A DNA stretch of 32,000 bases, from NCBI RefSeq assembly GCF_001457595.1, contig NZ_LN831039.1, positions 3,810,001-3,842,000 of the forward strand. Reading direction: 5' to 3'. A program made the position numbers and the translations under genes. Origin of the DNA: Mycolicibacterium smegmatis (GTDB taxonomy: Bacteria > Actinomycetota > Actinomycetes > Mycobacteriales > Mycobacteriaceae). The notes under the pieces are model-generated. The model saw only the letters and a program-made list of their open reading frames with translations. It did no database searches and was not told where the DNA came from. Shown here one piece after another: positions 10,583 through 23,399 of the stretch. Position 1 is the stretch's first letter, and each line of letters opens with the position of its first letter.

Positions 10583-10594
10583 CCGTCCGCGAGC

Positions 10595-10640
10595 GTGAAA
10601 CCTCAGCGAGAAAACTCGCAAAGAATCGCAGAGGTTTCAC
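10595..10640 (+). terminator. nested stem-loop just after the acyl-CoA synthetase stop (possible U-tract-less terminator or regulatory RNA)
   Basis: Outer perfect 10-bp stem GTGAAACCTC(10595-10604)/GAGGTTTCAC(10631-10640). Inner hairpin GCGAG-AAAA-CTCGC (10606-10619). Direct repeat AATCGCAG at 10624-10631 and 10641-10648. Confidence 0.4.
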
Positions 10641-10729
10641 AATCGCAGGGCGCCGATTCGCCGTTCGGGCAACCGCGCAACTGAAGGGTGCTAAATTCGC
10701 CGCACCACTTTCGAAGAGGGAGGCAGAAA

Positions 10730-11290
10730 ATGACTGCCACCGACCCCGACTGGATCACACCCGCCGCCATGGCGATACCGCCGGACGGATACTTCGAACT
10801 CGAACGGGGCCGTTACGGACCCGTCTTCCCGAGAACGCCCGCATGCCACGGATTCTCCATCATCGCGAAGGTCAAAGAGGGTCGCGAAGAGGCCGTACGC
10901 GCATACGGCAAACAGATCCAAGACGCAGTCGCGGACACACCCGAAGTCCTCGCACCACTGCGACTGCATTATCTGCGCTGGCTGCTGTTCGACGTCGGGT
11001 CGGGATTGCATTTCCAATATCAAGGAATCTTCGATACGGACTTCGACAAGTACACCGAAGACGCCGTACAACTGTTCAGCGCCACCGGGATTACTACCGT
11101 TTTCACAAATCTCGAAGGATTTCCGGCGGATTGGAAAGAGAATCCGGATGCGTTCATCCGGTTCGTCCGGGAGCATCAGGTGCCGAGTTTCCTCGAGTAC
11201 GGCGAGTATCCCTACGTGACGGCTGACGAGATCAAGAAGGCGTTGCGCCTCAAGTCGGCGTTCTCGACCATGCTCGACCAGATGCAGTGA
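10730..11290 (+). CDS. hypothetical protein (186 aa), first gene of the DyP-like cassette
   Basis: Within ORF 10688..11290, ATG 10730 is preceded by AGGGAGG (10716-10722). No motif I can assign. The stop overlaps the next start (GTGA). Visibly lower G+C than its neighbours. Confidence 0.7.
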   Translation: MTATDPDWITPAAMAIPPDGYFELERGRYGPVFPRTPACHGFSIIAKVKEGREEAVRAYGKQIQDAVADTPEVLAPLRLHYLRWLLFDVGSGLHFQYQGIFDTDFDKYTEDAVQLFSATGITTVFTNLEGFPADWKENPDAFIRFVREHQVPSFLEYGEYPYVTADEIKKALRLKSAFSTMLDQMQ

Positions 11291-12624
11291 CAGTGCTCGA
11301 CCTCGACGACATCCAGCACATCCTGCTGACCCGCACACCGGCCATCACCGGGCGATACGAATTCCTGACATTTGACACCCCCGCCGGTGGGCGTGCCTGG
11401 CTCACCGCGCTTCTGGACAAGGTGCAGTCCGCGGCCGATGTCCGGGCATCGATGGACACCTCTGACCGTTGGGTCACTTTGGCGTTCACATGGACCGGGC
11501 TGCGGGCGCTCGGCGTGCCCGAGGAGTCCCTGTCGACATTTCCGGACGAGTTCCGCGAGGGTATGGCCGCGCGCGCGAGCATCCTCGGCGACACCGGCGC
11601 CAACGCACCCGAGCACTGGCCGGGCGGACTGGCGGGAACCGACCTGCATGCGATCGCGATCCTGTTCTCCCGCAACGAAGAACAATGCCGGAAGTCCATC
11701 AGCGAACACGACCGCCTGCTGAGCCGCACCAACGGTGTGCGCAGCCTGTCGCACCTCGATCTCAACGCATCACCGCCGTTCGACCACGCGCACGATCACT
11801 TCGGCTTCCGCGATCGCCTGTCGCAACCCGTGATGAAGTATTCGGGTGAGGAACCGACCCCGGGTTCGGGCGACGCCCTCGAACCCGGCGAGTTCATCCT
11901 GGGCTATCCCGACGAATCGGGTCCGGTCGCACATCTCCCCCAGCCCGTGGTGTTGTCCCGCAACGGCAGTTTCATGGCCTACCGGCGGCTGCAGGAACAC
12001 GTCGGAGTGTTTCGCGAGTACCTGCGCGAACATTCCGACGATCCCGCCGGCGAGGCACTGCTGGCCGCGAAGTTCATGGGCCGGTGGCGCAGCGGTGCGC
12101 CGCTGGTACTCGCGCCCGAGTGTGACGATCCAGCACTCGGAGCAGATCCCATGCGCAACAACAATTTCAACTACAAGGACATGGACCCGTTCGGTTACGC
12201 ATGCCCGCTGGGATCGCATGCGCGCCGACTCAACCCGCGTGACACCGCGCACTACATGAACCGGCGACGCATGATCCGGCGCGGCGCCACCTACGGTCCC
12301 GCCCTGCCGGAGGGGGCGCCCGACGACGGCGTGGAGCGCGGTATCGCCGCGTTCATCATCTGCGCGGACCTCGTCCGCCAATTCGAGTTCGCCCAGAATG
12401 TGTGGATCAACGACAAGACGTTCCACGAGTTGGGCAACGAGCACGACCCGATCTGCGGGACCCAGGACGGGACCATGGATTTCACCGTGCCCAAGCGGCC
12501 GATCCGTAAGGTCCACAAGGGACTTCCTGCGTTCACCTCGGTCAGAGGCGGCGCGTACTTCTTCCTTCCCGGTATCTCGGCGTTGCGATACCTCGCTGCG
12601 CTGAAAGACGAGGTGACGGCATGA
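11287..12624 (+). CDS. DyP-type (dye-decolorizing) peroxidase family protein
   Basis: HFGFRDR (variant GXXDG, Asp codon 11812-11814), proximal-His motif GSHARRLNPRD (His 12217-12219), distal-Arg motif IRRGATYG (12274-12297) and an N-terminal LDDIQHILL segment. No signal or Tat peptide. Confidence 0.8.
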   Translation: MTVLDLDDIQHILLTRTPAITGRYEFLTFDTPAGGRAWLTALLDKVQSAADVRASMDTSDRWVTLAFTWTGLRALGVPEESLSTFPDEFREGMAARASILGDTGANAPEHWPGGLAGTDLHAIAILFSRNEEQCRKSISEHDRLLSRTNGVRSLSHLDLNASPPFDHAHDHFGFRDRLSQPVMKYSGEEPTPGSGDALEPGEFILGYPDESGPVAHLPQPVVLSRNGSFMAYRRLQEHVGVFREYLREHSDDPAGEALLAAKFMGRWRSGAPLVLAPECDDPALGADPMRNNNFNYKDMDPFGYACPLGSHARRLNPRDTAHYMNRRRMIRRGATYGPALPEGAPDDGVERGIAAFIICADLVRQFEFAQNVWINDKTFHELGNEHDPICGTQDGTMDFTVPKRPIRKVHKGLPAFTSVRGGAYFFLPGISALRYLAALKDEVTA

Positions 12625-13631
12625 CGGGCGGACCGGCGCGCACGTACAACCAGGCCCACATACCGCGTATGCGCAACGGCCGCAGACGCATCAGCATCTA
12701 CTGGACCTGGAGCTACCCCTGGGAGTCACAGCGAGACCCGGCCGCGATGGAGAACCGGTTTTCGACGATGACCGAGGTGCGCAACGTGTTGTGGCCGTCG
12801 TATGAGACAACCGAGTACGACTCCGCCCACTTCCTGCAGGGTATCGCGGGAACCCTTGAGCTGTTCCATCGTTCGACGCTGGCGTTCCAAACCCTGGTCG
12901 GCGACGTCACCGGTCATCCGGTCGCGGTGTTCCAGCGCATCGATCAGGCCGGGTACCGACTGCCGATCGACGAGCGCATCCTGGCCGACTGCGACACCCT
13001 CATGGTGTTCGGCCTCGACCACGTGCTCTCCGAGCAGGAGGCCGACACCGGAGAGGTCGAGGCGATCCGTGGGTGGCTACGTCGCGAAGGAACGTGTCTG
13101 CTGCTGGCTCCACACCATGACGTGGGCGACACCGCCGACTTCGGCCGGCGGCAGGTCGAGTATCTGCACCACGGCGATGCGCTGGTCCCCCGGCAACAAC
13201 GCTTCGGCCAGTACACGCGATCGTTGATGCGCGCGCTCGGCGTGCCGGTGCACAACATGTGGGGTCTGCGACCGGCTACGGTCGCCGGCACCTCCGAGAT
13301 CGCCCCGCTGACCGCGGTACGGGATCTTGACGGACCGGGACTGCTGGCAGACGTACCGACCTTCAACTTCCATCCGCACCTGCCGCACTACCAGCTCACG
13401 GCGCCCGAGAGCGACACGCTGCGGGTCCTCGGCCGTCAGCGTGTGGACCTGACTCGGCCACACCCGTTCACCGAGGCGGGCAACACCGAGTTCAACGCAC
13501 TGATCTGGATGCCGCCGGACGGCGAACGCGCCGGGGACATCGTGCTCGTCGACTCCACCAATTTCACGACGTTGTTCGGCGGTACCGACAGCCTGAAGCG
13601 CCTGTGGCACAACCTCGCCACCATGGCGTGA
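12621..13631 (+). CDS. hypothetical protein (336 aa), third gene of the DyP-like cassette
   Basis: ATG 12621 overlaps the DyP-like stop (ATGA). Good third-position G/C. No assignable motif. The His-rich stretch LLLAPHHDVGDTADFGRRQVEYLHHGD is notable. Confidence 0.65.
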   Translation: MTGGPARTYNQAHIPRMRNGRRRISIYWTWSYPWESQRDPAAMENRFSTMTEVRNVLWPSYETTEYDSAHFLQGIAGTLELFHRSTLAFQTLVGDVTGHPVAVFQRIDQAGYRLPIDERILADCDTLMVFGLDHVLSEQEADTGEVEAIRGWLRREGTCLLLAPHHDVGDTADFGRRQVEYLHHGDALVPRQQRFGQYTRSLMRALGVPVHNMWGLRPATVAGTSEIAPLTAVRDLDGPGLLADVPTFNFHPHLPHYQLTAPESDTLRVLGRQRVDLTRPHPFTEAGNTEFNALIWMPPDGERAGDIVLVDSTNFTTLFGGTDSLKRLWHNLATMA

Positions 13632-13634
13632 GGA

Positions 13635-14714
13635 TCACGGCAGACCGGAAACCAGCGGGTTCAGCGATACCGGGCGCGGTGCGAGAACCAGTCCGGGCAG
13701 CGGCGCCTCGGCCGGCGGCGCCGATGCCTCCGCGGGCCCGGGTAGCGCCTCGGCCGCCTGCGGGATGATCACTTGCGAATCTGGTTGTATTTCTGGGGTT
13801 TCCGGTGCGTTCACGGGGCCGGGCAACACACCGGGAACCGGCATCGCTCCCGCGGGCATGCCTTCGGGCAGGTGCGGCATGGGAGGTGCGAATTCGGGTG
13901 CGCCGACCGGGTTCTGCAGGTGTTGCACGCCGAGTGCCGGCGTGACCTCGGGAGCGGCCTGCTGCACAGGCTGCACCGCGGCCGGTTGCGGTTGCGGGCG
14001 CGCGAAGAGCACCTGCGGCTCTGACGCCCTCTGTGTGACCGACCCGGAAGCTGTCGATGACGCCTTCGACGTGGACTGCCGCACAGGTTTTGTCACCGTC
14101 CGCACGGTGTCTGGTTGCGGAATGTGGGGAACTGCGGCGGTGACGATCTGGATGGGGCCGCCTGCGGTCAGCGCCTGATCCTCTGGTTCGGTCTCGCCGG
14201 CGATGAACGTCGACCCGACGGCGGACAGCGCTACCACCGCCGCGGCGGCCGCGGTGCCTGCGATGCGCAGCGCCGTGCTCCGGTGCCGGCACGGCGGCAG
14301 CAGACACCTCACCCGCGCGGCCGGGACCGCGTCGGTGGCCACGGCCTGCGCGGCGGCGAGTGCCGTCGCCTCGAGCTCACCCGCGTCGCCGTCGTCGAGA
14401 AACTCCCGCGGCACGGTCCGTACATCGTCGAAACCGGCGGACTTCAGCGCTGCGACGATCGCCTCGGCGTGGACGCCGACGTCGTCGCTGCAGATCAGGC
14501 CAATGGCCCCGATGTCGTCACCGCTCGACGCGGCGATCCCCCGGGCACCGCGCGCCGCGGCGGCACAGCGCTCGGCCAGCACGTCGTCGGCGTCCACCTC
14601 GAAGGCGTCGTCGTCCAGAACTGCGGCGTCGGTGTCGGGGTATCCGGCCCGTTCATCGATCAGGACCCAGCCGACGCCCGCGGACGTCGCCGACAATCCC
14701 AATACCGTCTTCAC
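13635..14714 (-). CDS. mycobacterial-type membrane protein: conserved N-terminal domain, single TM helix, Pro/Ala-rich C-terminal tail
   Basis: The N-terminus MKTVLGLSATSAGVGWVLIDE is typical of a repeated mycobacterial family. TM segment ALRIAGTAAAAAVVALSAVGSTFIAG, followed by a P/A/Q/V-rich low-complexity tail. Confidence 0.75.
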   Translation of the reverse strand: MKTVLGLSATSAGVGWVLIDERAGYPDTDAAVLDDDAFEVDADDVLAERCAAAARGARGIAASSGDDIGAIGLICSDDVGVHAEAIVAALKSAGFDDVRTVPREFLDDGDAGELEATALAAAQAVATDAVPAARVRCLLPPCRHRSTALRIAGTAAAAAVVALSAVGSTFIAGETEPEDQALTAGGPIQIVTAAVPHIPQPDTVRTVTKPVRQSTSKASSTASGSVTQRASEPQVLFARPQPQPAAVQPVQQAAPEVTPALGVQHLQNPVGAPEFAPPMPHLPEGMPAGAMPVPGVLPGPVNAPETPEIQPDSQVIIPQAAEALPGPAEASAPPAEAPLPGLVLAPRPVSLNPLVSGLP

Positions 14715-20424: not shown

Positions 20425-21513
20425 ATGAATGCCGTGCCCGATAATCCCAAGCCGGTCCTGAACCGGCGCAGAGTCCTGCTGGGAGCGGCGGCGATCGGCG
20501 GCTTCTTGGCCGTGGACCTCGGAGCGTTGCTGTTCGCCACCAACACCCTTGGGACGCAACGACTCACCCCGAGAGCAATTCTCGAGGCGCTCGCCCCACC
20601 CGGCGGCCGACCCCGCGGCTACCGCGCCAACCATGCCAAAGGCGTCGCGGTATCCGGCTATTTCGACAGCAATGGCAACGGCCAGGAGATCTCCCGCGCC
20701 GCCGGGTTGGCGCCCGGGCGAACACCGGTCATCGGCCGGTTCTCGTTCGGTGGCAGCGACCCGCATGTGGCCGACGATCCGTCGCTGGCCCGTGGCCTGG
20801 GCCTGGCGTTCGGCTTTCCCTCCGGTCAGCAGTGGCGGACGGCCATGCTGAGTCTGCCGGTTTTCCCCGACAAGACACCAGAGGGTTTCTACGAACGCAC
20901 ACTGGCCGGAAAACCCTTGCCCTCCACGGGTAAACCGGATCCCGATGCGATGCCGAAGTACCTTGCCGCACATCCGGAGACCAAAGCCGCGTTGGACATC
21001 ATCAAAGCCACGAAACCGAGTCCCGGCTTCGCCGACAGCACCTTCCGCAGCCTGATGGCGTTCTACTTCGTCGACGACAAGGGAGTGCGCACCCCGGTGC
21101 GCTGGTCGTTGGAGCCCATGCAGGCAGCGCTGCCCGCAGGCACCGGGGACGACCGCCTGTTCGACGCACTGGTCCGGCAGATACGCAGCGGTCCCGTGCG
21201 GTGGAGGCTGCTGCTCACCGTCGGTGAGCAGCAGGACCCGGTCACCGACGCCACCGTGCCCTGGCCCGCCGATCGGCGCGTCATCGACGCAGGGACGCTG
21301 ACCCTGGACACTGTCGAGACCGACGGTCCGGGCAACGGACGCGACGTCAACTTCGATCCGCTGGTGCTGCCCGACGGTATCGAGCCGTCCGAGGACCCGA
21401 TGCTCAGTGCGCGGTCGGCGGCCTACGCCGCGTCCTACCGGCTGCGCACGAGTGAGACTCCGTCGATCCCGCCCGAGGTACAGGTCGACAAGGTCGAGGA
21501 GGTGGCGCAGTGA
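20425..21513 (+). CDS. catalase-related heme protein with Tat-type signal
   Basis: N-terminal NRRRVLLGAAAIGGFLAV (twin-arginine signal) and a catalase-core-like motif YRANHAKGVAVSGYF. About 360 aa, much shorter than a canonical catalase. GTGA overlap with the downstream cytochrome b. Confidence 0.7.
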   Translation: MNAVPDNPKPVLNRRRVLLGAAAIGGFLAVDLGALLFATNTLGTQRLTPRAILEALAPPGGRPRGYRANHAKGVAVSGYFDSNGNGQEISRAAGLAPGRTPVIGRFSFGGSDPHVADDPSLARGLGLAFGFPSGQQWRTAMLSLPVFPDKTPEGFYERTLAGKPLPSTGKPDPDAMPKYLAAHPETKAALDIIKATKPSPGFADSTFRSLMAFYFVDDKGVRTPVRWSLEPMQAALPAGTGDDRLFDALVRQIRSGPVRWRLLLTVGEQQDPVTDATVPWPADRRVIDAGTLTLDTVETDGPGNGRDVNFDPLVLPDGIEPSEDPMLSARSAAYAASYRLRTSETPSIPPEVQVDKVEEVAQ

Positions 21514-22088
21514 CGGCCACCGGCACCGACGAGACCATCGCACCGACCACCACACAGGCACGGCACGCGGTATCGACCAGGGTGTTCCACTGGCTCACCG
21601 CGATTCTCGTTTTCGCCGCGCTGTTCATCGGCTTCGTGATGGTGAATTCGGTGGCCAGTTATGCCCAGCTGCTGGTCATCCACAAGGCACTGGGTGTCAC
21701 GATCCTGGTGGTCGTGGTGATCCGCATCGGCAACCGGCTCTTTCACCGCGGCCCGCCGCTTCCGTCGACCGTCGGCGCACTCGAGCGCAAAGCCGTTGTG
21801 CTGTCCGAGGTTTCGATGTACGCCCTGCTGGTCGCCCAGCCGCTGATCGGGTGGGCGATGCTGTCGGCCGCGGGAAATCACGTCGCGGTGTTCAACCTCG
21901 TGCGGCTTCCCCGTATCGCACCGTTCAGCGCCGATCTCTACGGCGTGCTGCGCCAGGCGCACACGGTGGCGGCGTTCCTGTTGGTCGCGGCGATCGCAGC
22001 ACACGTCTGCGCGGTGCTGCTGCACAGCGTCACGCTGCGTGACGGGATGCTGCGCCGAATGACCTTCGGGTCATCCACGCGCGGCTGA
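21510..22088 (+). CDS. cytochrome b561-family membrane protein
   Basis: Four hydrophobic helices with conserved His residues (VFHWLTAILVFAALFIGF; VIHKALG; AHTVAAFLLVAAIAAH). The size and layout match bacterial cytochrome b561. Confidence 0.8.
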   Translation: MTATGTDETIAPTTTQARHAVSTRVFHWLTAILVFAALFIGFVMVNSVASYAQLLVIHKALGVTILVVVVIRIGNRLFHRGPPLPSTVGALERKAVVLSEVSMYALLVAQPLIGWAMLSAAGNHVAVFNLVRLPRIAPFSADLYGVLRQAHTVAAFLLVAAIAAHVCAVLLHSVTLRDGMLRRMTFGSSTRG

Positions 22089-23399
22089 GCCGGTCCCGGC
22101 CGGACCTGTCCGGCCCGCGCACAGCCTGGCCGCGGCCGTCGACGCCACGAAACCGGCGAGTGCCGACCATCCCACGACGCCGTCGAGACCGTTCTTGGCC
22201 ATGAGCGTCAGCACCGCGCCGGCCACGCAGATCAGCGCGCCGGCGACGATCGACCGGGCGCCGGTCGCCTGCACCTGGTCATCCCACCAGGGCAGCGGCC
22301 GGTGCTCGATCGGCGACAACAAACGAAACGCGATGGCCATCAGCACGGCGAACACCACGGCGCGCAGGGCCAGTAGCCCCCAGAATTCCGGGGCGTGCGG
22401 GTCGAACGCGTCGAGACCGAGCGCGTGCAGACCCAACGCCGCCGCGGCGATCACGGGGATGTGCCACAGGTACAACGTCATCGCTCCCCCGTTGCCGACG
22501 GCGACCACGTGCCACACGCGGGGCCGGTGCGCCCAGCGGCCGACGGCGCGGGCGCATGCGACGAACAGGCACGACACCCACGTGCAGTGCAGGGCGAGCA
22601 GCATCGTGGGCGGAGACACGTTGGACACGCGCTCGGCGCCGGTCACCACGAGTGACACGTCGTACGGCCCGACCAGCGCGAGCATGATCTGCCCGGCGAG
22701 GGTGCACACCGCGACGGCCAAGGCGATGCGCGGGCGGATGAGCCTGCGCGCGTAGGCCACGCCGATCACCACGGGAATGAGCCACACGACCACCAGGTTG
22801 GCGGTGCCCGCCGCAGGGGTGCCCACGGCGAAGCGCAGGCCGTCGAATACGGCGGCGAGCGCCACAAGAGCGGTCACCAACGCGCCCACCGCACGCCCCG
22901 AGGACATACGGGTGAGTGCCGGCACGAACGCCAACACCACGAGGTACACGCCCAGGAACCACAGCAGCGCCACACACTCGCGTCCCAGCGCCGCGGTCGA
23001 ATCGGCCCCCAGCGTGAGGTGCACGGCGACCAGGGCGACCACCCACGCCGCGAGATAGGCGAACACCGGCCGGCACAGGCGCTGGGCACGGGTGAACAGC
23101 CACGTCCCCCACGGTGTTCCCGCATGCCGGCTGTAGGTCCCTGCCGCTCCGCCCGCGAGGAAGAACAGCGGCATCACCTGCAGGATCCACGTGATGGGCG
23201 CCAGTGCGGGCAGCGCGCCGAGGATGTTGCCGACGCGCACGCCGGTGGAGTCGATCGTCGCGAGCAGCAGGGCACAGTGCCCGAACATCACCGCGACCAG
23301 CGCCGCGAGGCGCGCGACGTCGACCGCACGGTCGCGGTCGGGCCGCGTGGCACGGTCGACGTCTGATGCCCGGGTCGGCACGGCTTCAGGTGTCGGCAT
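22071..23399 (-). CDS. acyltransferase family 3 integral membrane protein
   Basis: ORF 22071..23456 begins with TTG and there is an internal ATG at 23399, so the start is uncertain. N-terminal AT3-like motif RDRAVDVARLAALVAVMFGHC followed by about 10 TM segments. The 3' end overlaps the cytochrome b561 gene convergently by 18 nt. Confidence 0.75.
   Translation of the reverse strand: MPTPEAVPTRASDVDRATRPDRDRAVDVARLAALVAVMFGHCALLLATIDSTGVRVGNILGALPALAPITWILQVMPLFFLAGGAAGTYSRHAGTPWGTWLFTRAQRLCRPVFAYLAAWVVALVAVHLTLGADSTAALGRECVALLWFLGVYLVVLAFVPALTRMSSGRAVGALVTALVALAAVFDGLRFAVGTPAAGTANLVVVWLIPVVIGVAYARRLIRPRIALAVAVCTLAGQIMLALVGPYDVSLVVTGAERVSNVSPPTMLLALHCTWVSCLFVACARAVGRWAHRPRVWHVVAVGNGGAMTLYLWHIPVIAAAALGLHALGLDAFDPHAPEFWGLLALRAVVFAVLMAIAFRLLSPIEHRPLPWWDDQVQATGARSIVAGALICVAGAVLTLMAKNGLDGVVGWSALAGFVASTAAARLCAGRTGPAGTGSAARG

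Follow-up and report, generated by a model that had tools for sequence, protein, structure and literature searches.

Some bacterial dye-decolorizing peroxidases (DyPs) are encoded together with dedicated partners. In the class-I iron systems EfeUOB and FepABC the DyP gene shares a conserved three-gene operon with genes for proteins that are not peroxidases, and periplasmic versions rely on the twin-arginine translocation (Tat) pathway. In the class-P DyP-encapsulin systems, e.g. Enc-DyP of M. smegmatis, the DyP functions only with a dedicated partner encoded next to it, a shell of the HK97 fold. The C-type enzyme DrDyP of Deinococcus radiodurans (PDB 8RE2/8RE3) binds heme; on its own, the purified enzyme has a six-coordinate, low-spin heme and shows no activity at pH 7.5, no physiological substrate has been assigned to it, and it was studied alone, without discussion of the neighbouring genes (PMC10820274). 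Described here is a three-gene cassette on the plus strand (10730-13631) of a 32,000-nucleotide stretch of the Mycolicibacterium smegmatis genome (contig NZ_LN831039.1), the whole of which is called the window. Its products are named P1, P2 and P3. The cassette is real; it is widespread, behaves as an autonomous unit and is strongly constrained, and on balance it is best explained as a heteromeric class-V DyP system, built around P2, with two undescribed accessory protein families.

Among enzymes of solved structure, DrDyP is the one closest to P2. The two have the same catalytic Asp, His and Arg, and in both the fifth position of the GXXDG fingerprint is not glycine (Met in DrDyP, Arg in P2); both genes also have a P1-family gene before and a third gene after. 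In D. radiodurans, however, the third gene is of the catalase family, not P3, and the locus lies beside fatty-acid metabolism genes. Differences from the other systems are larger in kind. EfeB carries its own Tat signal and has a permease and a cupredoxin/M75 protein as partners, whereas P2 has no Tat signal, neither of its partners matches a Pfam family, genes for a permease or an EfeO-type protein are absent from the neighbourhood, and the enzyme is cytoplasmic and of class V instead of class I. No encapsulin (HK97-fold) family is present among the genes within 10 kb either side of the trio, and P2 is again set apart by its class. An earlier, sequence-only reading of the window had placed the DyP in neither the encapsulin nor the EfeUOB/Tat context, and the nearby genes agree.

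By homology, P2 is a DyP of class V (C-type) in which the catalytic set is complete. It scores 34.1 bits against the Pfam family DyP_N (cutoff 27.5), and DrDyP is its closest solved relative (E = 2.8e-111 over residues 4-440, about 43% identity), the next-best structures being fungal D-type DyPs at about 1e-45. The catalytic Asp, His and Arg recognised in the sequence-only reading lie in the motifs HFGFRDR (Asp176), GSHARRLNPRD (His311) and IRRGATYG (Arg331/332), align with D189, H324 and R348 of DrDyP, and are kept in about 140 homologs. Also as read there, P2 has no signal peptide and departs from the canonical GXXDG fingerprint, with GFRDR and Arg in the fifth position. G[FY]RDR is a signature of the clade (131 of 144 DyPs in the fetched loci), and the missing fifth glycine does not exclude P2 from the DyPs because DrDyP, which is structurally confirmed, has GYKDM. 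No targeting-peptide-like tail was seen on inspecting the P2 C-terminus, which ends LAALKDEVTA. P2 is most likely the heme-containing catalytic subunit, with predicted peroxidase activity. The inactivity of lone DrDyP at pH 7.5 would be consistent with an absent partner.

Conservation of the trio was counted over 84 fetched loci (L numbers denote individual loci). P2 follows P1 in all 84 and P3 is present in 80, more than chance would produce, with junctions of -10 to +24 nt almost everywhere. The co-expressed three-gene cassette proposed in the sequence-only reading thus appears well founded, and its synteny is conserved in the other genomes surveyed. The trio recurs in four or more phyla, its members being 57-74% identical and its flanks differing from locus to locus; carriers include Nocardia, Nostoc plasmids, Streptomyces plasmids, a metagenome-assembled genome of Terriglobales, and soil metagenomes. 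On Nostoc conjugative plasmids it lies beside an IS1 element (about 70/70/67% identity), and on Streptomyces plasmids the gene order is P1-P3-DyP. Compared genome by genome, the trio is 82-90% identical to that of the window, versus 70-73% for the adjacent acyl-CoA synthetase gene in those same genomes.

The neighbours of the trio are too diverse to be used as a functional clue. A census of 302 neighbouring proteins gave 177 clusters, the commonest of which, a haemophore-family and a short-chain dehydrogenase/reductase cluster, occur at 13 loci each. Of the 13 loci with the mycobacterial haemophore-family gene (PF16525, heme-binding), 12 have it upstream of the trio; in L072 (7014-7358), the one inspected, it is on the opposite strand. 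A SnoaL-like (NTF2-fold) gene of ~134 aa stands between P1 and DyP in eight actinobacterial loci, namely L044 (8562-8962; PF13474, E = 8.5e-9), L005, L012, L029, L043, L047, L048 and L053. In diderms the trio is often joined by a gene for a Phenol_MetA_deg outer-membrane channel, which is adjacent in L085, L087, L094, L095 and L156.

P1 and P3 were searched against Pfam, NCBIfam and PDB sequences, also as profiles, and neither gave a match, in keeping with the earlier statement that neither partner belongs to a named family. P1 is nevertheless common, with 7095 homologs in a set of 5.8 billion proteins (1077 clusters at 50% identity) and relatives counted in at least 587 species genomes. Its conserved residues include His80, Arg83, the acidic run FDTDFDKYTEDA (101-112), EGFP (129-132) and a C-terminal MLDQMQ. 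The AlphaFold model of P1 has a beta-alpha-beta-beta-alpha core (predicted local distance difference test, pLDDT, 73.6; 15-sequence alignment). Its roughly 20 top Foldseek matches are nearly all dimeric alpha+beta-barrel proteins, among them TcmI cyclase, mutarotases, NIPSNAP and ABM monooxygenases, although the matches are weak (best E = 2.1e-3, target TM-scores 0.4-0.58). P1 is predicted to be a ferredoxin-like alpha+beta-barrel protein of a previously undescribed family. The dimeric alpha+beta barrel is the superfold from which DyP domains are built, and a segment of P1 had been likened to a ferredoxin-like half-domain of the DyP/chlorite-dismutase fold. The modelled fold, with its weak matches, makes that suggestion plausible; hhalign of the P1 profile against P2 detects no sequence similarity, so any kinship of P1 to a DyP half-domain would be at the fold level only.

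Gene 1 had also been called compositionally odd. The dip itself is real, with G+C falling to 0.54 over 10850-11300 versus 0.63-0.74 nearby. A foreign origin or recent acquisition of the gene was considered and rejected, since the G+C at third codon positions is normal (0.81, versus 0.82 for P2 and 0.83 for P3) and the low G+C is family-wide (mean across 78 loci 0.60 for P1, 0.654 for P2 and 0.644 for P3). On this comparison the dip follows from the amino acids that the family conserves, among which F, Y, K, D and E are abundant. Two unusual arrangements of P1 were seen elsewhere. Locus L088 (972-2332) has tandem P1 paralogs, 50% and 74% identical to the P1 of the window, then a frameshifted DyP, with P3 upstream; L086 (8001-8726) has a solitary Tat-signal P1, without DyP or P3, amid phage-type integrase genes on a 96-kb contig.

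P1-type partners are also found with other class-V DyPs. In D. radiodurans a 243-aa hypothetical gene is followed by DrDyP and then by the catalase-family gene, and the same Deinococcus-type cassette (P1-like, DyP, catalase-family) occurs in the Proteobacteria Shinella and Acinetobacter lwoffii and in Rhodococcus koreensis; the loci concerned are L096 (4187-7420), L097, L098 and L091. P1 is homologous to the hypothetical proteins encoded upstream of DrDyP and of the Shinella, Acinetobacter and Rhodococcus DyPs (hhalign probability 99.3%, E = 3e-20), and P1 and these distant partners share G-T-x-H-x-x-R-[FW]-x-x-F-D, [FY]-D-G-x-W-D-x-Y-I-x-D-F, E-G-[FW]-P, H-Q and Y-P. Deinococcus-type cassettes often lie beside 3-hydroxyacyl-CoA dehydrogenase, oleate hydratase, thioesterase and TetR genes, neighbours that point tentatively to lipid or hydroperoxide chemistry. 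Among plasmid-borne DyPs at least 38% identical to P2, a P1 or P1-like open reading frame is immediately adjacent in 41 of 45, as counted by matching coordinates across three plasmid searches.

A P1-like domain can even be joined to a DyP in one protein. A 1423-aa 'cytochrome P450' of Pararhizobium (L090, 2652-6923) consists of a P450, a membrane segment, a P1-like domain and a DyP, the P1-like domain (BLASTP E = 2e-12 to P1) being directly N-terminal to the DyP domain. This protein appears to belong to the V4 subclass of Yoshida and Sugano (2022), the P450-TM-DyP fusions, for which no P1-like module was reported (PMC9719856). The V4 fusions resemble the present cassette in having a class-V DyP domain behind a P1-like domain, and differ in being a single membrane-anchored polypeptide that includes a P450 domain and lacks P3. 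Inspection by eye suggests a possible second P1-like segment, degenerate, at about residues 460-650 of the Pararhizobium protein, and a Sulfitobacter 'cytochrome P450' (hit H108) also holds a P1-like segment. Four candidate direct P1-DyP fusions among the long representative matches (P0346, P0337, P0250 and P0361) were rejected as frameshifted metagenomic reads. Taken over adjacency, homology and fusion, the pattern suggests that P1 is a dedicated, general partner of bacterial class-V DyPs. Neither the partners nor the DyP hitchhiking discussed below was found described in the searchable literature, including by targeted full-text searches, and a P1-type DyP partner goes unmentioned in a 2021 and a 2026 review.

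P3 has at least 5853 homologs, including 100%-identical matches in Mycolicibacterium smegmatis. The His-rich core pointed out in the sequence-only reading proves invariant across phyla, and the invariant residues of the protein include His83, Cys159, PHHD (164-167), HHGD (183-186), FHPHLPHY (250-257) and RPHPF (279-283). This pattern suggests a metal or cofactor site, and the His/Asp cluster probably holds a metal or cofactor. The AlphaFold model is alpha/beta (pLDDT 69.0, predicted template modelling score 0.77), and its top Foldseek matches, all weak (E = 4e-3 or worse), are the GATase domain of CTP synthase, Agd3, IFT52-GIFT, gamma-glutamyl peptidase and FGAM synthetase. A class-I glutamine-amidotransferase/ThuA-like fold is predicted for P3. 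In agreement with these matches, one UniRef homolog record (P0164) is titled 'ThuA-like domain-containing protein', and, by eye only, Cys159 and FHPH loosely recall the GICLG and FHPE signatures of true amidotransferases, whose catalytic triad is Cys-His-Glu.

Export signals give a further view of the partnership. Signals were surveyed in 77 metagenomic loci plus the earlier ones. A divergent clade of the trio, with the order P3-P1-DyP, is periplasmic by the Tat signals on P1 and P3; P3 carries a signal in 18 of 18 loci having a Tat-signal P1 and a visible P3 N-terminus. The DyP carries one in none of the 26 loci of this clade (about 10 distinct lineages), its upstream frame closing within a few codons. 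In the cytoplasmic clade, which includes the window copy, no signals are present on P1, P2 or P3 (16 loci). The simplest reading of a signal-less heme protein encoded with two Tat substrates is assembly in the cytoplasm followed by co-export, and the distribution of signals implies that P1, DyP and P3 of the Tat clade would be co-exported as a complex. Hydrogenase-2 HybO/HybC and DmsA/DmsB are known Tat hitchhiker complexes. The likeness to them would hold for the homologous loci only, where a signal-less cofactor subunit adjoins signal-bearing partners, implying assembly before export; two of the three trio subunits bear signals, unlike in these complexes, and the M. smegmatis copy has none. 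That P1, P2 and P3 function together is near certain, and from the pairing, fusion and signal patterns a physical complex of the three is probable.

The layout of the cassette in the window is summarised in Table 1, where the three open reading frames stand as first placed. The ATGA overlap that joins P2 to P3 is real. The GTGA overlap claimed between P1 and P2 is present only if P2 begins at the first GTG, and the N-termini of P2 homologs, MLE[FL][DE]DIQ (MLEFDDIQ, MLELEDIQ), better match the second GTG, at 11293. The latter is the more likely start and would leave a 2-nt gap after P1 instead of an overlap, the linkage being tight in both cases. Exact 4-nt overlaps, judged by the range of junctions given above, are a lineage-specific trait and not a general one.

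Table 1. Features of the P1-P2-P3 cassette and its upstream region, in window coordinates
Feature	Position	Strand	Remarks
Hairpin (imperfect inverted repeat)	10589..10646	+	Arms 10589-10609 and 10626-10646; begins just past the upstream stop codon
Putative promoter and 5' untranslated region of the cassette	10647..10729	+	Holds the Shine-Dalgarno sequence; promoter inferred only
P1, 186 aa, DyP-associated protein	10730..11290	+	Basis: family, conservation, model, partner homology, fusion domain
P2, 445 aa, class-V (C-type) DyP, predicted heme peroxidase	11287..12624	+	Basis: PDB 8RE2 match, catalytic residues
P3, 336 aa, predicted class-I glutamine-amidotransferase/ThuA-like alpha/beta fold	12621..13631	+	Basis: conservation, weak model and fold matches

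A strong Shine-Dalgarno sequence, GAGGGAGG, lies at 10716-10723, 6 nt ahead of the ATG of P1. No sigma-70 consensus was found upstream of P1, scans for promoters and terminators were uninformative, and an Rfam search of the entire window gave zero matches, which speaks against a riboswitch or known RNA upstream. The structured intergenic region noticed in the sequence-only reading does contain a hairpin that folds better than shuffled controls (z-score -2.66). It starts directly behind the stop codon of the acyl-CoA-synthetase-like gene upstream, and is probably a terminator belonging to that gene rather than a part of the cassette. In M. smegmatis CP027541.1 (L003, 6572-7939) an ISL3-family transposase is inserted at the equivalent of window positions 10638-10645, in the 3' arm of the hairpin, flanked by an 8-bp target duplication (CACAATCG); it splits the cassette from the upstream gene and leaves ~85 bp of native sequence upstream of P1.

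On the other side, P3 and a convergent DUF7159 gene (13635-14714, minus strand) end 3 nt apart, a spacing that leaves no space for separate terminators (window 13631-13635). About 7 kb downstream of the trio (region 20425-22100) lie a catalase-family gene (20425-21510; PF00199, E = 1e-17) and then a cytochrome-b (Ni_hydr_CYTB) gene; the former was considered as a counterpart of the Deinococcus-type third gene and rejected as unrelated to it (E = 0.068). PADLOC gave no defence-system match. A literature search on MSMEG_3698-3703, which we take to be the locus tags of this region, found nothing.

The heteromeric system favoured here would work as follows. The three genes would form a single operon for a multi-subunit DyP system, with P2 as the heme-containing catalytic subunit. 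P1 would be its dedicated partner, presenting substrate or cofactor or activating the heme, and P3 a second accessory protein specific to the trio version, with a putative metal or cofactor site. The three would assemble in the cytoplasm, and in diderm relatives the assembled complex would cross the membrane by means of the Tat signals of P1 and P3. As to the substrate, peroxide-dependent oxidation of a small aromatic or hydrophobic molecule is a speculative idea, suggested by the Phenol_MetA_deg gene that adjoins diderm trios and by the optional SnoaL-like gene. A metal as substrate, a role in heme handling and the modification of a protein are possible too.

Several observations weigh against this account. 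P2 reaches only 95.1 bits against TIGR01413, just short of the 100.5 cutoff, and the models of P1 and P3 are both moderate (pLDDT 73.6 and 69.0, from shallow alignments), with Foldseek E-values all >1e-3. The hints at a substrate come from neighbours that are present only in some lineages. Membership of the cassette also varies. In M. peregrinum and a related Mycobacterium sp. (L006-L008) P1 and DyP are kept (85-90% identity) and P3 is missing, and in the Deinococcus-type cassette P3 gives way to the catalase-family gene. In L155-L157 it is the DyP that is replaced, by an FAD/NAD(P) oxidoreductase between P1 and P3; in L156 (4504-8632) the order is P1, oxidoreductase, P3 and a Phenol_MetA_deg outer-membrane protein, with no DyP within 9.6 kb. 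L095 has the oxidoreductase after P1, no P3 that could be found, and a DyP-like fragment beyond its Phenol_MetA_deg gene. The oxidoreductase of L155-L157 and L095 is pyridine-nucleotide-disulfide-oxidoreductase-like, without the redox-active cysteines. These losses, replacements and swaps mean that the three-way partnership is not obligatory. Judged by gene content, P1 is the constant element and the redox enzyme beside it varies; the third place is filled by P3 or by at least one alternative to it. As to export, two signal-bearing subunits per Tat cargo would be unusual, and the DyP of the Tat clade could simply remain cytoplasmic.

Much the same variability would suit a metabolic operon of three separate soluble enzymes forming no stable complex, an unlikely account but the strongest of the rivals. 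P1 would then be a cofactor-free barrel cyclase, isomerase or monooxygenase, in line with its best structural matches, which are small-molecule enzymes (TcmI cyclase, mutarotases, ABM monooxygenases), and P3 would be a hydrolase or amidotransferase-like enzyme, as its resemblance to GATase1 and gamma-glutamyl peptidase folds allows. The DyP would oxidise an intermediate of aromatic or lipid breakdown or detoxification; other genes can take the place of the third gene and even of the DyP, a SnoaL-like gene or Phenol_MetA_deg channel is added at some loci, and the Deinococcus-type cassette adjoins genes of fatty-acid metabolism. Full-length identity of 57-74% across phyla for all three proteins would, however, be unusual for pathway enzymes, and a P1-like domain is fused directly to a DyP. 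Nor does separate action in one compartment easily explain why the DyP has no Tat signal at every locus where its partners carry one.

Other accounts give P1 or P3 a more specialised task. Metal oxidation or trafficking analogous to EfeUOB or DtpA, in which the DyP would use peroxide to oxidise Fe2+, Mn2+ or Cu+ while the His cluster of P3 and the acidic DxDxD run of P1 bind the metal, is improbable. It draws on the invariant P3 clusters PHHD, HHGD, HPHLPH and RPHPF, on the invariant P1 run FDTDFDKYTEDA, kept as YDGDWDxYIxDF in distant partners, and on the known action of class-I DyPs on metals (review PMC8197335). Yet the neighbour census shows no consistent link of the trio to a permease, metallochaperone or Fur-type regulator, P3 matches none of the known metal-binding families in sequence, and a cytoplasmic location in mycobacteria is unfit for uptake. 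The least probable of the rivals is a heme-handling module in which P1 binds, chaperones or degrades heme for the DyP, as the alpha+beta-barrel proteins IsdG and MhuD do with heme. The ferredoxin-like barrel fold of P1 with its invariant His80 and Arg83 would fit such a task, P1-type domains accompany heme enzymes (DyP, P450, catalase-family), and the haemophore-family gene (PF16525, 13 loci) is the commonest neighbour in mycobacterial loci. That neighbour is present in only 13 of about 80 loci, though, P1 is also paired with a flavoprotein replacing the heme enzyme, and it has no sequence similarity to the IsdG/ABM families.

A bolder form of the heteromeric system, decidedly doubtful, would make P1-DyP-P3 a new kind of three-subunit heme-metalloenzyme. 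Instead of being a free-standing 'dye' peroxidase, the DyP would be its oxidant-activating subunit, whose target would be either a substrate that P1 and P3 hold or one of these two proteins itself. In the self-modification variant the DyP would install a cross-link, a quinone-type cofactor or a metal site in P1 or P3, as MauG and MbnH do. In MauG/pre-MADH and MbnH/MbnP, di-heme c-type peroxidases that are unrelated to DyPs modify a partner protein. The analogy would lie in a heme peroxidase encoded with a dedicated partner rich in conserved aromatic or His residues. If true, such an enzyme would explain why C-type DyPs, DrDyP among them, are nearly inactive in isolation, and the bacterial class-V DyPs would gain a physiological role.

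What DyPs do in the cell, and which substrates they truly act on, has long been an open question, and the bacterial class C/V is the least explored. The pairing with partners, the fusion and the partner-borne export signals make it a concrete and testable hypothesis that the functional unit is a complex. P1 and P3 would define two new protein families, and in M. smegmatis the trio has a genetically tractable host.

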